Shown here piece after piece: positions 3,922 through 59,966 of a DNA stretch of 64,000 nt (position 1 is the first letter of the stretch; every line of letters starts with the position of its first letter). Origin of the DNA: a virus (Duplodnaviria > Caudoviricetes); IMG/VR virus record IMGVR_UViG_3300025084_003379, positions 1 to 64,000 of that record, one strand, 5' to 3'. Made by a program: the position numbers and the translations under genes. A model generated the notes under the pieces. That model did no database searches. It was not told the origin of the DNA and saw nothing but the letters and a program-made list of their open reading frames with translations.

Positions 3922-3994
3922 TGTGCCTTGGTGTAACTGGCAACACGTCTGGTTTTGGTCCAGAAGAGTGGAGGTTCGAGCCCTTCAGGCACAA
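3922..3994 (+). tRNA. trnQ: tRNA-Gln (UUG)
   Basis: Cloverleaf: acceptor TGTGCCT/AGGCACA, D-arm GTGT/ACAC, anticodon arm TCTGG-TT-TTG-GT-CCAGA, T-arm GGAGG-TTCGAGC-CCTTC. CCA is not encoded. Confidence 0.95.
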
Positions 3995-4010
3995 CATTGT
4001 TAAGCTACTA

Positions 4011-4019
4011 AATATATAC
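4011..4019 (+). promoter_or_regulatory. Class B (late-like) motif AATATATAC upstream of bS21
   Basis: Same single-box motif that precedes the structural genes. Confidence 0.45.
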
Positions 4020-4022
4020 TAT

Positions 4023-4223
4023 ATGATTATAATTAAAAACAGTGGTAAAGACTCTATTGATAAAATGCTTAAGAAGTATAAACAGAAACAAAAGAGAACT
4101 AAGCAAATTAGAAGTATTAGAGAAAGGAAGGAATATACGAAACCTTCCGTTAAGAAAAGAGAGCAAAAACTTAAAGCAATCTACATTCAAAAACTCAGAG
4201 ACCAAGAGCAAAAAAGGTCTTAA
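4023..4223 (+). CDS. rpsU: Ribosomal protein bS21, Bacteroidia type
   Basis: MIIIKNSGKDSIDKMLKKYKQK...IRERKEYTKPSVKKREQKLKAIYIQ; S21 KPS motif; start at ATG 4023, after the tRNA. Confidence 0.92.
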   Translation: MIIIKNSGKDSIDKMLKKYKQKQKRTKQIRSIRERKEYTKPSVKKREQKLKAIYIQKLRDQEQKRS

Positions 4224-5754: not shown

Positions 5755-6288
5755 ATGAAGATGAAGAAGATTTTAATGATGATAATGGTTTCGCTTGGCC
5801 TACAATTACAAGCACAGACGTTATGTGATTCAAATATGACTTACACAACAGGTTCACAGTATCAATTAGAAATAGCAATACCAATTACAGGTAATGGTTT
5901 ACCAATGATGGCTCCGCTATATGCTGTCACTTATGGTGGACAAGATATGTTAGGTGAAGATAGTTGTTTCAATAATGCTTGTACACATGTAGTATACAAT
6001 TATAATATGTCTACTGGTATGCCTTATGATACAATCACAACTTGTATTAGTTATACCTTAACAGATTCATTAGGTTATGTTGATACAATGAGCTGTTGCT
6101 TCAATCAAGTATGGGACGGGCAAGCATGGATGAGAATGTCTATGGGTGGTACTGTTGGTATAGAAGAGTTAACTTCTACTATGATTGGTGATAATAAAAT
6201 CTATGATGTATATGGAAGAGAATTACTTACTGCACCTATCGGTCAGATGTATATTCAGAATAGAAAGAAGTATATCAAACTAAGATAA
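5755..6288 (+). CDS. Secreted Cys-containing protein with T9SS-like C-terminal domain
   Basis: Signal peptide (MKKILMMIMVSLGLQLQA/Q) and C-terminus VGIEEL...KIYDVYGRE...GQMYIQNRKKYIKLR. An AAAC-N18-TATAAT motif lies at 5716-5745. Confidence 0.6.
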   Translation: MKMKKILMMIMVSLGLQLQAQTLCDSNMTYTTGSQYQLEIAIPITGNGLPMMAPLYAVTYGGQDMLGEDSCFNNACTHVVYNYNMSTGMPYDTITTCISYTLTDSLGYVDTMSCCFNQVWDGQAWMRMSMGGTVGIEELTSTMIGDNKIYDVYGRELLTAPIGQMYIQNRKKYIKLR

Positions 6289-9456: not shown

Positions 9457-10779
9457 ATGACTGAATACACAAACCTTACTTATCTACAATCCTTCTTGGA
9501 TGAAATGCGATCTTCCTCTTCAGGTAATCATAAAATTGCAACTCTTAAAAAGTATGCTGATAACTCTGATGAAAATTCTGATAGAGAATTCTTACAGAAA
9601 GTTTTCTTCTATACCTACAATCCTTATTTTAAGTATAATGTAACTCCTAAGAATTGTAAAAAGAATTCAGATTTACTAGGTCACCCAAATACATACGGTA
9701 GTATCTTTACCTTATTGGATGATTTAAGAAATAGGGTATGCACTGGTCATACTGCAATTGCAAATGTAAATAGATTCGTCCTAGAGAATAAACAATGGGA
9801 AGATATTATTTACTATATGCTAAACCGAGACCTTAATATGGGATGTGGTACTACCTCTATCAATAAGGCAGTCCACCCAGATTTAATTCCAACATTTAAA
9901 GTCGCTTTAGCAAATGCATATAATCCTAAGAGAGTAGATTTTCAAAGTGGAGAATGGTACGGATCCAGAAAATTGGATGGTGTAAGATGTATCTGTAGAA
10001 AAGAAATGAATACTGTAACATTCTTTTCAAGGAACGGTAAAGAATTTACTACCTTAGGTAATTTAGAAAATGAAATTTCTAAAATAGGTGGAGACTTTAT
10101 TTTAGATGGAGAAATCTGTATGGTAGATAAAGATGGTAATGAAGACTTCCAAGGAATTATGAAACAAATTAGAAAGAAGGATCATCAAATTGAAAATCCT
10201 AAATTCTTTGTATTTGATTTTTTAACCTTAGATGAATTTGATGATAAGGTTGGAACTACTCCTCTTACTGAAAGACTTAAGAATGGTTATGATATTTTAC
10301 CGGAAGAAATTAAATCTTCTATGTTAGAATTCTTACCACAAGAACAATTAACTACCGAAGAACAATTTACTGAAATGGCAAAAGAAGCCGAAGAGGCTGG
10401 GTTTGAAGGAATCATGGTTAGAAAGAATATTGGCTATGAAGGTAAAAGAAGTCATAATCTTTTAAAAGTTAAAAAATTCCATGATGCTGAATATACAATT
10501 TTAGAATGTATAAACGGTACAATGCGATGGACAGAAAATGGAAAACAAGTTGAGAAAGAAGGTTTAAGTAATATTATAATTGAACATAAAGGTAATAAAG
10601 TAAGTGTTGGATCTGGATTCTCTAAAGAACAAAGAGAACATTACCTTAATAATCATAATGAACTAATTGGTAAAACTGTAACTGTTCAATATTTTGAAGA
10701 AAGTCAAAATCAGAATGGTGGATATTCATTAAGATTCCCGGTAGTAAAACATATATATGAAAATGGAAGAAATTGTTAA
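9457..10779 (+). CDS. lig: ATP-dependent DNA ligase
   Basis: SRKLDGVR (motif I), LDGE, FFVFD, EGIMVR, LLKVK and OB-fold end SLRFP. Confidence 0.95.
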   Translation: MTEYTNLTYLQSFLDEMRSSSSGNHKIATLKKYADNSDENSDREFLQKVFFYTYNPYFKYNVTPKNCKKNSDLLGHPNTYGSIFTLLDDLRNRVCTGHTAIANVNRFVLENKQWEDIIYYMLNRDLNMGCGTTSINKAVHPDLIPTFKVALANAYNPKRVDFQSGEWYGSRKLDGVRCICRKEMNTVTFFSRNGKEFTTLGNLENEISKIGGDFILDGEICMVDKDGNEDFQGIMKQIRKKDHQIENPKFFVFDFLTLDEFDDKVGTTPLTERLKNGYDILPEEIKSSMLEFLPQEQLTTEEQFTEMAKEAEEAGFEGIMVRKNIGYEGKRSHNLLKVKKFHDAEYTILECINGTMRWTENGKQVEKEGLSNIIIEHKGNKVSVGSGFSKEQREHYLNNHNELIGKTVTVQYFEESQNQNGGYSLRFPVVKHIYENGRNC

Positions 10780-24951: not shown

Positions 24952-25848
24952 ATGGGGAAATTAACAACAAAGGATTTAAGAGACGATAATCTTAAGGGTA
25001 CACAATGGATCGGTATTGTTGAAGATATTAATGATGATATATTTGAAGGGCGATGTAGAATTAGAGTCTTTGGTAAAATGGATCAAAGACAAGACCCAGA
25101 AGATCCAGCAAGTGCATTTGTTATGCCAACTGCTTCTTTGCCTTGGGCTAGGCCATCTGTAGCATCTTCAGGTGGAAGTAACACTGGTAGTGGTACATTT
25201 TCAGTACCTAAACTAGGAACGATTTTAAGAGTAAGTTTTGATAATGGTAATTATTATGCACCAGTATACCATGAGTCGCTATACCCTTCTGATGAGACTA
25301 AGGCGGAGATAGAGGCAGCTTATCCTAATTCACACGTATTAATATATGACACTGCATTTGGTTTAACTGGTGAGTTAGAATCTGGTAGCCCTGATGTTAC
25401 TAATGAAAGAGAAGGCGAACATATTAAAGTTTTCTTTACGGAAGAAAAAGGTTTAATGATGGATTATACAACAACTGAAGGTCCAACTACAATAAATATA
25501 AAACCTGATAACTCAGTTGAAATAATAAATGCAAACGGTGATTCTATTGTAATGTTAAATGATGGAAATATAACATTTACACACTCCGCCCAATTTACGA
25601 TTAATAGTGGAGCTAATACTGAGATCAATTGCGAGGACGCATTAATTAATTGTAAAAATATGGTTGTTAATCATGCATCATCAATTGAACTAGGGGAAGG
25701 CGCGAGTGAGCCATTAGTACTAGGTAATTTAATGACTACCTTATTTAACACACATACCCATGTTGGTAATCTAGGCGCACCAACTAGCCCACCTACAAAA
25801 CCGATGACTCCTAATGAATTAAGTAAGAAACAGGTTAAATCATTGTAA
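24952..25848 (+). CDS. gp5: Baseplate central spike (gp5/VgrG-type OB fold plus beta-helix, no lysozyme domain)
   Basis: GIVEDINDDIFEGRCRIRVFG...LPWARP...VPKLGTILRVSF; C-terminal HTH (HxH metal-binding apex). Confidence 0.85.
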   Translation: MGKLTTKDLRDDNLKGTQWIGIVEDINDDIFEGRCRIRVFGKMDQRQDPEDPASAFVMPTASLPWARPSVASSGGSNTGSGTFSVPKLGTILRVSFDNGNYYAPVYHESLYPSDETKAEIEAAYPNSHVLIYDTAFGLTGELESGSPDVTNEREGEHIKVFFTEEKGLMMDYTTTEGPTTINIKPDNSVEIINANGDSIVMLNDGNITFTHSAQFTINSGANTEINCEDALINCKNMVVNHASSIELGEGASEPLVLGNLMTTLFNTHTHVGNLGAPTSPPTKPMTPNELSKKQVKSL

Positions 25849-25880: not shown

Positions 25881-26174
25881 ATGCCATTAACTAAGAGTAT
25901 TTTAAATGACGAGCTGATTACTGCATTTTCTGATGCTATGTATAAGTTTCTTGAAATTTCATCTCAGCCTAATGGTAACGAAGGAAAGGATAAGTCAGTA
26001 GAAGCTATTAAAGAAGCATCAGAAACATTTGCAGCTAAAGCATCAACTTCTATAGATGCTTACATAAGATCAGGCTTGGTAACTACTGTCGTGGCTACTA
26101 CTGTTGCTACAACAGGTACCGCAGTTGCTCAAGCAGGTGCCGGTGCAGGTTCAGGTACTGGCGCAATTACCTAA
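25881..26174 (+). CDS. Small spike-adjacent virion protein
   Basis: 97 aa with a Thr/Ala/Gly-rich C-terminus; directly follows the spike gene. Confidence 0.6.
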   Translation: MPLTKSILNDELITAFSDAMYKFLEISSQPNGNEGKDKSVEAIKEASETFAAKASTSIDAYIRSGLVTTVVATTVATTGTAVAQAGAGAGSGTGAIT

Positions 26175-26229
26175 TGAAACTATTTACTAACTCATATGTA
26201 TAACTAATATTAGATGTACAAATATATAA
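26175..26229 (+). promoter_or_regulatory. Tandem class A (TGAAAC-N18-TATAAC) and class B (AATATATAA) motifs upstream of the S1 gene
   Basis: TGAAAC 26175-26180, TATAAC 26199-26204, AATATATAA 26221-26229. Confidence 0.5.
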
Positions 26230-26259
26230 TCTATAATAACACTCTTAATAAAAAAAATA

Positions 26260-27432
26260 ATGATTGAACAAGAAATCACCATCCAATTAAGCGATGATCC
26301 ATTTGACACTAAAGTAATTAAAGTTAAAGTACCTAAAGGAACTAAATTAATGTGTACTGAAATGTATGCAGCCGATGCAATGTCAATGTATGATTTAGCA
26401 GACGATGAGGCTGAACGATTACAGAAATCTGAAGAATTACGAAATTACATTACTCAAGGTGAAATTTCATATATTAAGAAAGAAACACAATTAATAGATG
26501 GCGAGGAAGTTGAAGTAAAAACAGAAGCTCTTATTGATATATCCAGAAAAAATACAGCCATCTGTAATTTAATCAAGGAACCTAAAGAAGTAGTAGACCA
26601 ACTAGAAATTGGTATGGTAATTGACATTAAAGTCAAAGAGCATAAACAAGGTACATTATATGCATCAATTGGAGATGCATTGGATGAGGTTAAACGAAAT
26701 GAAATTTATAATGCTATAGGAAATAAGACGATCGGATTTACTGGTAAAGTAAAAGAATTAATTCACGGTGGGTATTGGGTAGAAGTTGGTGGAGTAGAAT
26801 GTTTTATGCCTGGGTCATTAGGTGGTCTTAATAAATTACAGAATTTTGAAAAGTTAGTAGGTAAAGAATTAATAGTAATGCCAATAACATATTCAAACGA
26901 AAAGAAAACTATTGTAGTATCCCATAGAGAATATTTAAGAACCATGATTCCTTCTGCGGTTGAAACTCTAAGAGAAGAAATTAAAGAACCTATTACTGGA
27001 ATTGTTACTGGCGCTACTAAGTTTGGAATTTTTGCAGAGTTTAACGAATGTCTTACTGGATTAATACCTAAAAATGAATTGGATGAATCGACTTTAGGTT
27101 TATTTGATAATAGAAATATTAAACCTGGTGACGAAATAAATTTCTGGGCAAAAGAAATAATATCAGATAGAAAAATTATCTTGAGTCAAGCTGGTCCTAA
27201 GATTGATTTATGGGATGGTGCCGATGAAAAATACAAACCTATGATGGTTACCGAAGGTAAGGTTACTAAGGTTACTAAATATGGGGCGTTCGTCGAATTA
27301 GAAAAAGGGATAAGTGGACTTGTTCATAGAACTAAATTAAAGAACACTGAACTTAGTAAAGGTGATATTATAAATGTAAAGATTGGTAGTGTTAATGTTA
27401 GCGATCGCAAGATCACTATGAACTTAGTATAA
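26260..27432 (+). CDS. rpsA: Ribosomal protein bS1-like protein with about four S1 domains
   Basis: S1 repeats GKVKELIHGGYWVEVGGVECFMPGS, GIVTGATKFGIFAEF...GLIP and GKVTKVTKYGAFVELEKGISGLVH, plus a degenerate first repeat. Confidence 0.85.
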   Translation: MIEQEITIQLSDDPFDTKVIKVKVPKGTKLMCTEMYAADAMSMYDLADDEAERLQKSEELRNYITQGEISYIKKETQLIDGEEVEVKTEALIDISRKNTAICNLIKEPKEVVDQLEIGMVIDIKVKEHKQGTLYASIGDALDEVKRNEIYNAIGNKTIGFTGKVKELIHGGYWVEVGGVECFMPGSLGGLNKLQNFEKLVGKELIVMPITYSNEKKTIVVSHREYLRTMIPSAVETLREEIKEPITGIVTGATKFGIFAEFNECLTGLIPKNELDESTLGLFDNRNIKPGDEINFWAKEIISDRKIILSQAGPKIDLWDGADEKYKPMMVTEGKVTKVTKYGAFVELEKGISGLVHRTKLKNTELSKGDIINVKIGSVNVSDRKITMNLV

Positions 27433-27474: not shown

Positions 27475-28773
27475 ATGTATTCTAACGAACAACTTAATGC
27501 TATACATTCTTCAAAGATCGGATTTGAATTTGAGTTTTTTTCAAATGAAAATTTAGATCTCACGAAGGATAGCTTATCACAAGCTCTTAATAAGAAAATC
27601 AGAATAGAGGAAAAGGCTCATAGTGACTTTACCCCAACCGAAGAAACTTTTAAATTAGAACCAGATAATTCTGGTGGTACCGGTATGATTGAATTGGTAA
27701 CCGGCCCACTTCCATTTGTTGAAGCTAAATTAGTTATGGCTAAAGCTTTAAAATGGATTAGAGAAAATGGCTCTACTAATGAAAGATGCTCTATCCACAT
27801 AAACCTTGCGTTTGATGGTAAAAAGCTAGGCCCTATTACAAATATGTCTAATTTAGATATAGGTAAATTTGTACTTAACTTTGATGAAAACAAAGTATAT
27901 GAAGCCTTTCCAAACAGAAGAGATTCTGTTTATGCAAAATCTATAAAGTTTATTGTACCTTTAAGTGGTATGACACAACCATCACCAGAAAAAAATCTTT
28001 GGAAAAACTATATGTTTGTCAAAGAAAAGTATTATGGTATTAATTTTAGTAAAGTACCTAAAGGTTATATTGAATTTAGATACTTAGGTGGAAAGGATTA
28101 TGAAAATAGATATTCTACTATACTCTCACTAACCGAACATTTTATTACTTCATTATATGAGACTTTAGTTAATCCTCAATATAGTGAATCTGACCTAAAA
28201 GTTTTAGATAAGATTTTAGAAAAGCATAAAACTGTTATTGAATCTTATAGAACATATTCTTCATTTAAAGAAAAGTTTCCAAATATTCATTTAATGATTG
28301 ATCTAAAAACAGCAGATCAAATTGTAGAAATGTATTATCCTAAAATACGCGAAAAGATTTTTGATTTAATTACTAAGGCTGATATGAATGAAGGCTTTAT
28401 TAATTATGACGCGGACACTGGAAGAATACAGATAAAGGATGCTAAATTAATGAGATGTTTTGAAATAAATGGAATTGATATAGTTGATTCTATAATTCAA
28501 GGCAATATTGTTAACTGTGATATTTTTAGCTGCGATTTAAAAAATTCATCAATATTTGAATCTAACTTATTTGGGGCTACTGTTGCAGAAGATTCCAAGA
28601 TAGAAGAATCTTATGTTAGTAGAAATGTAATATGTGAGGATAGTTATGTATTTGGCAAAAGAGGAGTTTTTAGTGGAGAAATGGTTGGAGGTATATTTAG
28701 ACAAGGTAGAGCTACAAAGCTTGCTAGGTTTGGTGATAATACTGAGGTGATAGAAATAGAAAAAATTAAATAA
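27475..28773 (+). CDS. Putative amidoligase (COOH-NH2 ligase fold) with C-terminal beta-helix-like repeats
   Basis: IGFEFEF, IELVT, CSIHIN, KYYGIN and IEFR motifs. Confidence 0.75.
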   Translation: MYSNEQLNAIHSSKIGFEFEFFSNENLDLTKDSLSQALNKKIRIEEKAHSDFTPTEETFKLEPDNSGGTGMIELVTGPLPFVEAKLVMAKALKWIRENGSTNERCSIHINLAFDGKKLGPITNMSNLDIGKFVLNFDENKVYEAFPNRRDSVYAKSIKFIVPLSGMTQPSPEKNLWKNYMFVKEKYYGINFSKVPKGYIEFRYLGGKDYENRYSTILSLTEHFITSLYETLVNPQYSESDLKVLDKILEKHKTVIESYRTYSSFKEKFPNIHLMIDLKTADQIVEMYYPKIREKIFDLITKADMNEGFINYDADTGRIQIKDAKLMRCFEINGIDIVDSIIQGNIVNCDIFSCDLKNSSIFESNLFGATVAEDSKIEESYVSRNVICEDSYVFGKRGVFSGEMVGGIFRQGRATKLARFGDNTEVIEIEKIK

Positions 28774-28777
28774 AGTT

Positions 28778-29632
28778 ATGGCTAGGAATAAAAGTTGGTG
28801 TAACCCAGACGCACAAGAATGTTTAGATGCACTCATAAAAGAAATTAATGATGATTTGACTGTTGCGTGCCAAATACCTTTTACTGTACCAAAAAAGGAA
28901 TTGGCTCATATTATAAATAGGGCAAAGGATTATTTTTATAAAATATATGAAGATAGTGTTGAAGAGATGTTTATCGCTTTACCTAAATCTGCATGGTACG
29001 AAAAAGACTTTAGGCAAGGAATAAGTCATAATGATGGTGGAAATACTCTAACCGAAAATGATGTAAAAAATCCTAGAGGTGTTGTAAAAATGCCTAGTAC
29101 TATTTGGGCAGTCAACGATGTATTTCAGATTAATGGATTTTCAGGAGAAGATGGTGGCTTTGGTAGTCAATCATTTTCAGCAGGTGATGTAGACTTTTCA
29201 TTAGATAAATTTATTTACTCTGATGTGTACGGTGCAGGAATTGGATCAGAAGAACTTATGTATTATGTAATTAATGAAAAATTTATTGATAACGCAAGAC
29301 AGGTATTACAACCACAAATATCATATAACTACAATAGACTGACCAAGAAATTCAGATTTATGGGTAAGTTGCCAAATAAAGGTGCATGTATTTTTCAAGT
29401 ATATAATACTATTCCTGATTGTGATCTTTTCCAAGATGAAGCTTTTATAAGATATTGTATCGGTATGGCAAAAATTCAATTATCTAGAATATTAGGTACA
29501 TTTCAATTTAACCTTCCAGGTAATATTACCATTAATTATGATTTGATTTCAAGCGAAGGGCGAGAAGAGGTTGATTCGATAGTAGAAGAAATAAAAGGTG
29601 ATGAAGGTGTTGACTATTTCTACACGGGGTAA
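28778..29632 (+). CDS. gp13: Neck protein (T4 gp13-like)
   Basis: C-terminal RYCIGMAKIQLSRILGTFQFNLPGNITINYDLISSEG resembles the gp13 end. Confidence 0.78.
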   Translation: MARNKSWCNPDAQECLDALIKEINDDLTVACQIPFTVPKKELAHIINRAKDYFYKIYEDSVEEMFIALPKSAWYEKDFRQGISHNDGGNTLTENDVKNPRGVVKMPSTIWAVNDVFQINGFSGEDGGFGSQSFSAGDVDFSLDKFIYSDVYGAGIGSEELMYYVINEKFIDNARQVLQPQISYNYNRLTKKFRFMGKLPNKGACIFQVYNTIPDCDLFQDEAFIRYCIGMAKIQLSRILGTFQFNLPGNITINYDLISSEGREEVDSIVEEIKGDEGVDYFYTG

Positions 29633-29689: not shown

Positions 29690-30055
29690 ATGATAAAGGA
29701 AATATACAGTAGAGACATAGATTCACCTAAGTATAATAATGATGTAATTGAAGTAACAGATCAATTGCAGCAACTTATTCTTAAAGTAGAGAATTGTTTA
29801 TTTACTCGCAAGGGAGATGTTCTAGGTGCACCTAATATGGGATGTAACTTAGATGACCTTATCTTTTCGTTAGTATTAAATGAATCAGTTATTGCTCAGA
29901 GGATCAGTACACAGATTCAAACATACTGTTCTAATAGCAGCAGCTCCCAATTTGGTGTTGATGTTAGAGTACAGTTTTATAGTACAGCAGAAAGAAATGG
30001 TTGCCTTGTAGATATTTACATAGATGAGCGAAGAGTAATTGGTGCTTTGTTTTAA
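29690..30055 (+). CDS. gp25: Baseplate wedge / sheath initiator (gp25-like)
   Basis: LFTRKGDVLGAPNMGCNLDDLIF. Confidence 0.82.
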   Translation: MIKEIYSRDIDSPKYNNDVIEVTDQLQQLILKVENCLFTRKGDVLGAPNMGCNLDDLIFSLVLNESVIAQRISTQIQTYCSNSSSSQFGVDVRVQFYSTAERNGCLVDIYIDERRVIGALF

Positions 30056-58015: not shown

Positions 58016-58464
58016 TGGCATTTGACGATACACAAATAAAAGAAGCTAATGAGCAGTTGGAAGGTAGATTAACATCAGATAGAAATGATTGGAAATCAAA
58101 GATTAAAGATCTTGTTTCTAAGCTTAAAAATATGAATGAGCTGGCCGAGTGCCAAGTAAGAATGTTATCATATCGACAAATACTATTAGATAAAGTAACT
58201 GATTTTAAAACTACCATATATAAAAGGAACGCTACTTGGGATAGGTATTATAAACAACAGTACCGAGAATATTCAATTAACTATGATGTTAAGTTAACTA
58301 ACGGTGAAAAGAATCAATTTATAAAAGCAGATCTTTCATCTCTTAGGCAACAAATTGATATGTTACAATCTCATATAGATTATTATTATGAGTGTATTAA
58401 AACATTAGATAATATGGCGTTTGCTATAAGAAACAGAATTAATCTGGATGATAAGGAATTTTAA
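58015..58464 (+). CDS. uvsY: Recombination mediator UvsY-like
   Basis: Helical protein directly before UvsW ending IKTLDNMAFAIRNRI; conserved uvsY-uvsW order. Confidence 0.75.
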   Translation: MAFDDTQIKEANEQLEGRLTSDRNDWKSKIKDLVSKLKNMNELAECQVRMLSYRQILLDKVTDFKTTIYKRNATWDRYYKQQYREYSINYDVKLTNGEKNQFIKADLSSLRQQIDMLQSHIDYYYECIKTLDNMAFAIRNRINLDDKEF

Positions 58465-59966
58465 TGGAACTATCTCTGTCGGAAAATAAAAAGTTTTTAG
58501 TAATTGATTCATGCACCGAATTGGAATATGAGCAATTAAAATCTAGTCTTACTAAGAAAATAGAAGGTTGGAGATTTCACCCTCTAGTAAAGAAAAAGGT
58601 ATGGGATGGTAATATTTCATTTATCAAAAGAAATAAAATTCCGGCAGGGTTATGGAAAGAAGTAATTGATATATGTAAAGAATATGATTATCAATTTACA
58701 TTAAACGGTATAACTGATATTTTTGATACTTCTATAGATGAAGAAATATTTAGATCTTGGGTAGATGAGTTTTTTGCTACATCTGAAATTAAGCCTAGAG
58801 ATTATCAAATTGATGCAGCGATAAAGATTTTAAAGTATAGACGGTGTTTGGCTGAATTAGCAACATCTGCAGGTAAAACTTTAATTTCATTTATGGTGGT
58901 TGCTTATATGATGGAACAGTTAGGTAAAAAGAAAATCTTAATGATAGTACCTAATGTAAGTTTAGTTGTTCAAGCAAGCGGAGACTTTGAAGAATACAAT
59001 AAAGGCAGGGTACCTATTAAGATTCAACAAATTTATGCAGGCGTAAAATTACGAAAGAGTTCTAATGTTGTTATAGGTACTTACCAATCATTAACTAAAA
59101 AGGACGAGGAATACTTTAGCCAATTTGATGCAGTCTTTGTAGATGAAACTCATAAAGCAAAAGCAAATTCAATTCAAAAGATAATGGATAAATGCTGGCA
59201 TTGTGACTACAGATTTGGTTTGAGCGGTACTATTCCTAAAAGAGGAACTGTAAATAGACTAAGCTTAATGTCGGCAATGGGCCCATTAGTAACTCAAGTA
59301 AAAGCTGCTCACTTACAAGAAGAAGGTCATATTGCAAAATGTAAAGTATTGCAAATCCACATGGAATATGCAACCGATGCTCAAAAAGAAGCATTTTCAT
59401 CATTATCTAAAAACCCATATGATAGACAAAAGCTATTTAGTTTAGAACAGAACTTTATTAATGAAAGCGAAAAGAGGTTAGATTTCGTTTGTCAAGTAAT
59501 TAAAAAGTCTACATCTAATTCACTAGTGCTATTTCATAAAATAGCTTATGGTGAAAAGATATACCAAAAACTTCGAGCAATAACAGATAAGAAAGTTTAT
59601 TATGTAGACGGTTCTGTTAAATCTGATTTTAGAGAAGAGTTCAAAAAAAGAATGGAAAAAAATGATGATGTTATTATTGTAGCTTCGTATGGTACATTCT
59701 CAACCGGTATATCTATTAAAAATATACACAACATATTTTTTACTGAATCATTTAAATCCGAAGTGATCATTAGACAATCAATCGGTAGAGGATTAAGAAA
59801 GCACTCATCTAAAGACGTTGTAAAAATATATGATTTTATTGATGATTTCCGTTATAAAGTAGATGATCATGACTGGGTAAATTACATATACAGACATGGT
59901 ATGGAAAGAAGAAAAATTTACAAAGAGGAAAAGTTTCCATTTGAGGTGCAAAATGTTAGATACTAA
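58464..59966 (+). CDS. uvsW: SF2 DNA helicase UvsW
   Basis: PRDYQ, LATSAGKT, VDETH, GLSGT, ASYGTFSTGISI, QSIGRGLR. Confidence 0.95.
   Translation: MELSLSENKKFLVIDSCTELEYEQLKSSLTKKIEGWRFHPLVKKKVWDGNISFIKRNKIPAGLWKEVIDICKEYDYQFTLNGITDIFDTSIDEEIFRSWVDEFFATSEIKPRDYQIDAAIKILKYRRCLAELATSAGKTLISFMVVAYMMEQLGKKKILMIVPNVSLVVQASGDFEEYNKGRVPIKIQQIYAGVKLRKSSNVVIGTYQSLTKKDEEYFSQFDAVFVDETHKAKANSIQKIMDKCWHCDYRFGLSGTIPKRGTVNRLSLMSAMGPLVTQVKAAHLQEEGHIAKCKVLQIHMEYATDAQKEAFSSLSKNPYDRQKLFSLEQNFINESEKRLDFVCQVIKKSTSNSLVLFHKIAYGEKIYQKLRAITDKKVYYVDGSVKSDFREEFKKRMEKNDDVIIVASYGTFSTGISIKNIHNIFFTESFKSEVIIRQSIGRGLRKHSSKDVVKIYDFIDDFRYKVDDHDWVNYIYRHGMERRKIYKEEKFPFEVQNVRY

Follow-up and report, generated by a model that had tools for sequence, protein, structure and literature searches.

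Huge phages carrying genes for rpS1 and rpS21 were described by Al-Shayeb et al. [quoted passage not shown] Mizuno et al. (2019) treated phage bS21 and put S1 aside as ambiguous (PMC6375957), and Chen et al. (2022) tied bS21 of Bacteroidota phages to late expression (PMC9723584). The Microcystis jumbo phage PhiMa05 encodes bS1 among other ribosomal proteins; in that study, its bS1 gene clusters with those of Vampirovibrio hosts, pointing to recent capture (PMC13157829). On the bacterial side, bS1 and bS21 of Flavobacterium johnsoniae are interdependent on SD-less mRNAs, and bS1 boosts SD-less initiation solely when bS21 is present (PMC13000457). In F. johnsoniae studies the N-terminus of bS1 lies on uS2 and uS8 and is disordered without bS21.

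The stretch of DNA analyzed here (the window, 64,000 nucleotides) covers the first 64 kb of an IMG/VR virus contig with a length of 75,123 bp. Its completeness was estimated by CheckV at 25%, and the full genome is therefore likely near 300 kb. The data point to a large, uncultured, marine phage infecting Bacteroidota. The window encodes an S1 protein which, judged by its sequence, is a well-supported case of the huge-phage rpS1 kind already published; the finding is thus not new, since genes of this kind, like the hypothesis, have been known since 2020. The interpretation that we consider fairly probable is that a bS1 of the phage lineage docks on the uS2 site of the 30S subunit and aids the translation of A-rich, SD-less phage mRNAs. 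The features of the window that are relevant to this interpretation are the following:

3922–3995, plus strand: tRNA-Gln (UUG), directly upstream of bS21 (ARAGORN)
4023–4223, plus strand: phage bS21, 66 aa, with Tyr54 (PF01165, 31.4 bits against a cut-off of 27)
24952–25848, plus strand: gp5-like baseplate hub/spike with an OB domain (phrog_430, E 4e-12; weak Phage_base_V match)
26198–26229, plus strand: two boxes, GTATAA (26198–26203) and the late-type AATATATAA (26221–26229), conserved in relatives
26230–26259, plus strand: A-rich leader without SD, ending in TAATAAAAAAAATA before the ATG (sequence; kept in relatives)
26260–27432, plus strand: phage bS1-like gene, 390 aa, ATG start, corresponding to D1–D4 of bacterial bS1 (open reading frame, NCBIfam, family profile, AF2, dN/dS)
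27475–28773, plus strand: amidoligase-like protein, 432 aa, directly downstream of S1 (weak PF12224 match)
28778–29632, plus strand: T4 gp13-like neck/adaptor gene (phrog_211, E 2e-11; homologues carry PF26809, Phage_T4_gp13)
29690–30055, plus strand: gp25-like baseplate wedge gene (phrog_43, phrog_261)

The open reading frame assigned to S1 in a previous inspection of the sequence alone (the sequence-only reading) is genuine. Its start codon is called correctly, because homologues conserve the N-terminal residues from residue 1. The dN/dS ratio, calculated for nine relatives with 78–87% identity and the window's own copy, was about 0.11 across the phage S1, 0.15 for the N-terminus and no higher than this in any region, which indicates purifying selection, the values being rough since dS is near saturation.

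The structure of the protein was predicted by AF2 from an alignment of 95 sequences (pLDDT 92, pTM 0.71); this model superseded the one obtained from the single sequence, whose pLDDT was only 36. The following parts of the gene were delineated:

26260–26445, plus strand: N-terminal element specific to the phage family, residues 1–62, with a beta-hairpin, the VPKGTK(I/L) segment and a helix bearing Y36 and Y44 (AF2, conservation)
26446–26667, plus strand: D1, residues 63–136, a degenerate OB fold whose beta1-beta2 hairpin is long, with K97 (AF2, HMM alignment)
26737–26922, plus strand: D2, residues 160–221, best conserved of the domains; contains the motif GGYxV...FMPGSL as well as Y172 and F182 (alignments, AF2)
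26992–27186, plus strand: D3, residues 245–309, a canonical S1 RNA-binding domain (Pfam PF00575 at 26983–27186, AF2)
27247–27429, plus strand: D4, residues 330–390 (330–389 in the AF2 model), a canonical S1 RNA-binding domain (Pfam PF00575 at 27244–27420, E 2e-13; AF2)

The four OB/S1 domains agree with the previous estimate of about four, and only D3 and D4 exceeded the Pfam threshold. The protein ends after D4 in the AF2 model; domains 5 and 6, present among the six repeats of bS1 of Proteobacteria and Bacteroidota, are absent. The N-terminal extension, previously given as approximately 100 aa, is shorter and comprises about 60 aa, with a beta-hairpin at residues 2–24 and a helix at residues 36–58; the degenerate D1 was probably counted into the extension.

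Several comparisons identify the protein as bS1. The NCBIfam rpsA model PRK06299 aligns residues 43–387, in order, with model positions 16–371. The scores are far below the curated cut-offs, namely 131 bits for PRK06299.1-2 (equivalog cut-off 524) and 120 bits for TIGR00717 (cut-off 577), and the model of the Firmicutes-type four-domain S1, PRK06676, gave 116 bits, its cut-off being 368. A profile built from the phage family matched residues 10–347 (D1–D4) of Escherichia coli bS1 with E 3e-86 and 293 bits, the best protein other than bS1 being Rrp5 with 142 bits. The top Foldseek matches were ribosome-bound E. coli bS1 (30S; 9gut_B, E 6e-23), the D1–D2 pair superposed on ribosome-bound D1–D2 (9guq_B, TM 0.72), and CvfB-like proteins, Tex, NusA and RNase R ranked far below bS1. 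The clustering with RNase E, Tex or CvfB that would speak against a ribosomal protein was thus not seen. Models of the non-ribosomal S1 types (Tex, RNase E/R, PNPase, CvfB, GSP13) matched D4 alone with 19–50 bits and were rejected, and the domain scan of the phage S1 found no domain, catalytic or otherwise, besides the S1 domains. A phmmer search of the N-terminal 165 aa alone against PDB yielded no match. By these profile and fold comparisons, the phage S1 is a bS1 homologue along its whole length, D1 to D4.

In cellular bS1, an N-terminal aromatic helix stacks on Phe32 of uS2, and in Bacteroidia a helix-loop-helix lies on uS2 and uS8. Domains D1 and D2 of bS1 attach the protein to the ribosome and are not modules for RNA binding; in E. 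coli the loop-2 lysine K43 of D1 enters the acidic/Zn pocket of uS2, and the D2 pocket is formed by K117, F120 and F130 (PMC10123108). In the phage S1, K97 of the D1 loop aligns with K43 and is kept in at least 90% of the 18 near-clade sequences. Y172 and F182, matching F120 and F130, are invariant in the near clade, and H169 occupies the position of K117. In the near-clade N-terminus P14, K29 and Y44 are invariant, while P25, G27, E34 and Y36 are nearly so. HMM and profile-profile comparisons revealed no similarity of residues 1–50 to the docking N-termini of E. coli bS1 and five Bacteroidota bS1. Retention of the host-type docking helix-loop-helix was rejected, since hhalign of the phage and Bacteroidota N-termini aligned just the first D1 strand, with a probability of 1%.

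The complex proposed in the sequence-only reading was modeled using residues 1–160 of S1 with the family alignment and uS2 of F. johnsoniae, a stand-in for uS2 of the phage's host, together with three controls; no uS2 gene was found within the 75-kb contig. The model scored 0.79, the best control scored 0.00, the runs shared at least 98% of contacts, and the pLDDT of the partner was at least 82. Of 80 solved complexes, 58 came up to this mark, as did 2 of the 110 mismatched pairs. The controls were therefore passed; since a like complex has already been solved, this outcome indicates likeness to it and not binding by the phage copy. The uS2 side of the modeled interface consists of residues 16–20, 32–39 and 204–209, and E. 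coli His18, Phe32, Asn203, Asp204 and Asp205 correspond to positions 19, 33, 204, 205 and 206 of Flavobacteriales uS2 (an offset of +1). The contacts in the model are thus those of the canonical bS1 site (His18, Phe32 and the acidic pocket). The S1 side includes residues 24–46 (VPKGTK(I/L)..E.Y), 51–59, 95–101 around K97 and 130–133. In the model, residues 95–101, the K97 loop, touch uS2 204–209, and the segment with Y36 and Y44, which has no sequence similarity to cellular N-termini, is placed against uS2 32–39. The N-terminal element is therefore the predicted uS2 dock of the phage S1, and we infer from the model that the phage S1 could bind the ribosome.

Alternatively, S1 could be an RNA chaperone or mRNA protector acting off the ribosome, in which D3–D4 and perhaps D2 would bind A-rich leaders and stabilize or unfold them or steer RNases. 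In the wide family D2 and D3 are best conserved, with about 50% mean identity to the query, while the N-terminus and D1 are least conserved (16%–24%); the conservation of D2–D4 against a variable D1 and N-terminus, like the absence of homology between this N-terminus and cellular docking segments, is what such a protein would display. Host S1 works off the ribosome with RegB of T4 and with Q-beta replicase (PMC13157829), and the question left open by Al-Shayeb et al. concerned this very role (PMC7162821). Nevertheless, we regard an off-ribosome protein as unlikely, because the lysine equivalent to K43 and the N-terminal segment predicted to touch uS2 are both conserved, the N-terminus is under purifying selection, and D1 and D2 of bS1 serve for binding to the ribosome (PMC10123108).

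The family to which this S1 belongs is large. More than 100 clusters of 379–390-aa proteins, 67–99% identical, were found, many of them from Tara and other marine data; the contigs carrying them reach 215 kb, and more than 540 IMG/VR contigs encode an S1 relative. Some members are already labeled "30S ribosomal protein S1" in UniProt/BFVD. A tree of 88 rows was built by a quick IQ-TREE search; it is unrooted, has SH-aLRT support only, and was made without the Firmicutes-type four-domain S1. In this tree, 64 short relatives (340–450 aa) and the window's S1 are split by a branch with 100% SH-aLRT from cellular bS1; the long cellular proteins, including that of E. coli, are opposite, and the five Bacteroidota sequences form a well-supported clade nested among them. 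The phage S1 scored 74–104 bits against the five Bacteroidota rpsA and 93 bits against that of E. coli, being no closer to Bacteroidota than to E. coli rpsA, contrary to what a recent capture from the host would predict. The names retrieved for the best long cellular matches were few (Elusimicrobiota, Deltaproteobacteria). Recent capture from Bacteroidota rpsA was rejected, as the phage S1 does not group with Bacteroidota bS1 and its scores do not favor this over bS1 of E. coli. The split and the scores together characterize S1 as an old resident of the phage lineage and not a recent acquisition from the host.

Expression of the gene can be considered from its upstream region. GTATAA is located at −62 and AATATATAA at −39 of the S1 ATG. 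Both boxes stand at a constant distance from the ATG in relatives, including some whose proteins are only about 50% identical, whereas the surrounding sequence has diverged; a few relatives have no box upstream of S1. The two promoter classes reported upstream of the gene are thus present and conserved as sequence elements, and their role as promoters, with late timing, would follow if they resemble the late promoters of T4 in function. With 10 occurrences in the window against 6.4 expected from shuffling, AATATATAA is not above chance in raw number, and the case for this box is based on strand bias, position and its footprint in relatives. The box, as (A/G)ATATATA(A/C), was also found 12–39 nt before the starts at 1325, 4023 (bS21), 18020, 19679, 25881, 27475, 29690, 54187 and 60030, and thus precedes bS21 as well as neighboring structural genes.

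Gene starts are A-rich and lack SD, as had been noted from the sequence: among 59 plus-strand genes, the upstream frequency of A was 0.53–0.68 at most positions from −17 to −5 (0.46 at −10), and SD-like 4-mers occurred at 4 starts against 5 expected. The supposed preference for A at −3 was not observed, its frequency there (0.42) being below that of neighboring positions. A 14-mer, AATAAATAAAAAAA, occurs in three plus-strand copies (12476, 23580 and 42244) and in none on the other strand, and from the start of each copy it is exactly 25 nt to the ATG of a gene of the structural module (12501, 23605 and 42269), two of these genes being very large; this sequence could be a leader or promoter element.

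Both bS21 and tRNA-Gln, previously noticed in the window, were detected, by PF01165 and ARAGORN. The bS21 gene begins 27 nt after tRNA-Gln and lies about 22 kb from S1. Its product has Tyr54, as in F. johnsoniae, and its closest bacterial relatives, with 50–61% identity, are almost all from Bacteroidota; this likeness suggests that the host belongs to Bacteroidota and that bS21 and S1 differ in their histories. The "paired capture" of S1 and bS21 suggested in the sequence-only reading therefore fails, since an old phage S1 clade is combined with a bS21 of Bacteroidota type. The two genes do occur together, as was expected: among the related viral contigs with a length of 49 kb or more, 28 in total, 12 carry bS21, always 19–26 kb upstream of S1 and on the same strand. 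When only those contigs reaching at least 19.4 kb upstream of S1 are counted, it accompanies S1 in 12 of 14, and the two that lack it, with 52% and 62% identity, are related more distantly. The ATG of bS21 (4023) is located 3 nt after the late-type box AATATATAC (4011–4019). Given this short distance, the bS21 message may be leaderless; alternatively, it may be co-transcribed with tRNA-Gln.

A phage S1 placed on uS2 could also act as a dominant-negative subunit shutting off the host, filling the bS1 site and, without D5–D6, failing host mRNAs, so that host translation would drop while phage messages less dependent on S1 still initiate. The same uS2 surface is predicted for it, the bS21 message, with its ATG 3 nt after the box, may be leaderless, and the four domains differ from the long multi-repeat bS1 of the five Bacteroidota genes checked. 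We consider this quite improbable, because an inert plug would not need D3, D4 and the D2 pocket, all of which are kept and strongly constrained, and because the leader of the S1 gene itself is A-rich, of the kind favored by S1. Moreover, S1 proteins with four domains are found naturally in bacteria of several phyla.

As the sequence-only reading had stated, S1 is located between spike and neck genes, with the hub upstream (24952–25848), the neck gene downstream (28778–29632) and then the gp25-like gene. Genomic context was inspected in seven contigs whose S1 homologues share between 69% and about 35% identity with the window's S1. All seven were phage-borne and carried S1 in the same baseplate/neck part, and all neighbors together were present in none. 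The gp5-like hub (Pfam Phage_base_V) is upstream of S1, with one or two ORFs between, in contigs L006, L096, that of P0170 and LR756500.1. In L004, L005, L006, L095 and L096, a gene for an amidoligase-like protein of about 430 aa and then a T4 gp13-like gene directly follow S1 on its 3' side, and next come a gp25-sized gene and a large gene; the latter has a weak Baseplate_J match in L004 and L005 only. In LR756500.1, two small ORFs on the reverse strand separate S1 from the 435-aa ORF that follows, and a gp13-like gene was not detected there. Packaging or attachment near the baseplate or neck for delivery into the next cell, or an assembly role of the OB folds, is highly improbable: the position between hub and neck genes is conserved in the sampled clade contigs, packaging of phage bS21 was raised as possible by Chen et al. 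(PMC9723584), and a role in translation after injection would be compatible with it, but PHROGs gave no structural-protein family for S1, its homology to bS1 is full-length, and gene order alone is a weak argument.

Some other properties of these regions were observed. The C-terminal half of the amidoligase-like gene product is repeat-rich in the window (27475–28773), as well as in L004, L005, L006, L095 and L096. Between the hub and S1 lies a 97-aa ORF (25881–26174) with a Gly/Ala/Thr-rich tail and without a family match, which occupies the place of the small spike-tip genes of T4. The S1/baseplate region of the 462-kb LR756500.1 is flanked by TnpB/Cas12f-like (PF07282) and DUF7487/TnsA-like ORFs (L180:809-2011 and L180:11426-12628), and mobile elements have apparently been inserted beside this module. 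The window also encodes an ATP-dependent DNA ligase (PF01068 and an OB domain; 9457–10779) and a UvsW-like helicase (ResIII, UvsW_N; 58464–59966), both typical of T4-like replication modules. Assignment of ORF 5755–6288 to type IX secretion cargo with a T9SS C-terminal domain is not supported by family scans, as neither Pfam nor NCBIfam gave a match.

Docking of a phage-lineage bS1 on the 30S subunit would thus proceed as follows. S1 would be expressed along with baseplate and neck genes, from a late-type promoter box of its own. Its N-terminal element, D1 and D2 would attach to the 30S platform where host bS1 normally binds uS2, and D3 and D4 would bind A/U-rich single-stranded leaders. The phage protein would join or replace the loosely bound host bS1 when much structural protein is needed and help to load A-rich SD-less phage mRNAs, probably beside phage bS21 on the same platform. 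The late timing and the preference for phage mRNAs are suggested by the upstream box and the A-rich leaders. Of the original proposal that the phage swaps ribosomal proteins, the bS1 homology, the docking residues, the uS2 model and the co-occurrence with bS21 all speak in favor, and the paired capture has to be dropped. A broader version is tentative, and we hold it with some doubt: an old lineage-specific bS1 paralogue with a re-invented uS2 dock may be a core baseplate/neck gene of widespread aquatic T4-like jumbo phages of Bacteroidota and, jointly with a bS21 that was acquired independently and is preceded by the same late box, may rebuild the 30S platform for A-rich SD-less or leaderless late mRNAs.

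To our knowledge, S1 and S21 are the sole ribosomal proteins by which a virus could directly alter the choice of mRNA. The S1 family is abundant in ocean data and strongly constrained. The published F. johnsoniae in vitro system would suit the phage S1/bS21 pair, and K97 and the VPKGTK(I/L) segment are precise targets for mutants. At least one marine jumbo-phage survey discarded bins holding more than one ribosomal protein (PMC9123017), so phages with both S1 and S21 may be undercounted.

Compared to the known systems, the locus most resembles that of Al-Shayeb et al. Their "possible rpS1", a 389-aa ORF of LR756500.1, is 41% identical to the window's S1 over 376 columns, including the N-terminal motif; in both cases S1 lies downstream of a Phage_base_V hub, rpS21 is present in the same phages and SD is absent. 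In contrast to those phages, the window's S1 comes from a separate marine lineage with 67–99% identical ocean relatives. The 2020 paper does not describe how the domains are arranged, which residues would dock, that the gene keeps its place within the baseplate module or that S1 and S21 have separate histories. As in the cases of Mizuno et al. and Chen et al., the phage bS21, a small protein of the platform, has Tyr54, belongs to a Bacteroidota phage and is proposed to favor late phage mRNAs; the difference is that S1 is treated here and that the window holds both S1 and bS21, about 22 kb apart. PhiMa05 also encodes a bS1, whereas the S1 family of the window is an old clade of its own. With bacterial bS1 of E. 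coli and Bacteroidia, the phage protein shares the order D1–D4, the K43 equivalent, the D2 pocket, canonical D3 and D4 and the predicted uS2 surface. It differs from them in having four domains instead of six, an unrelated hairpin and helix in place of the N-terminal docking segment, a long branch apart and scores far under the curated cut-offs.
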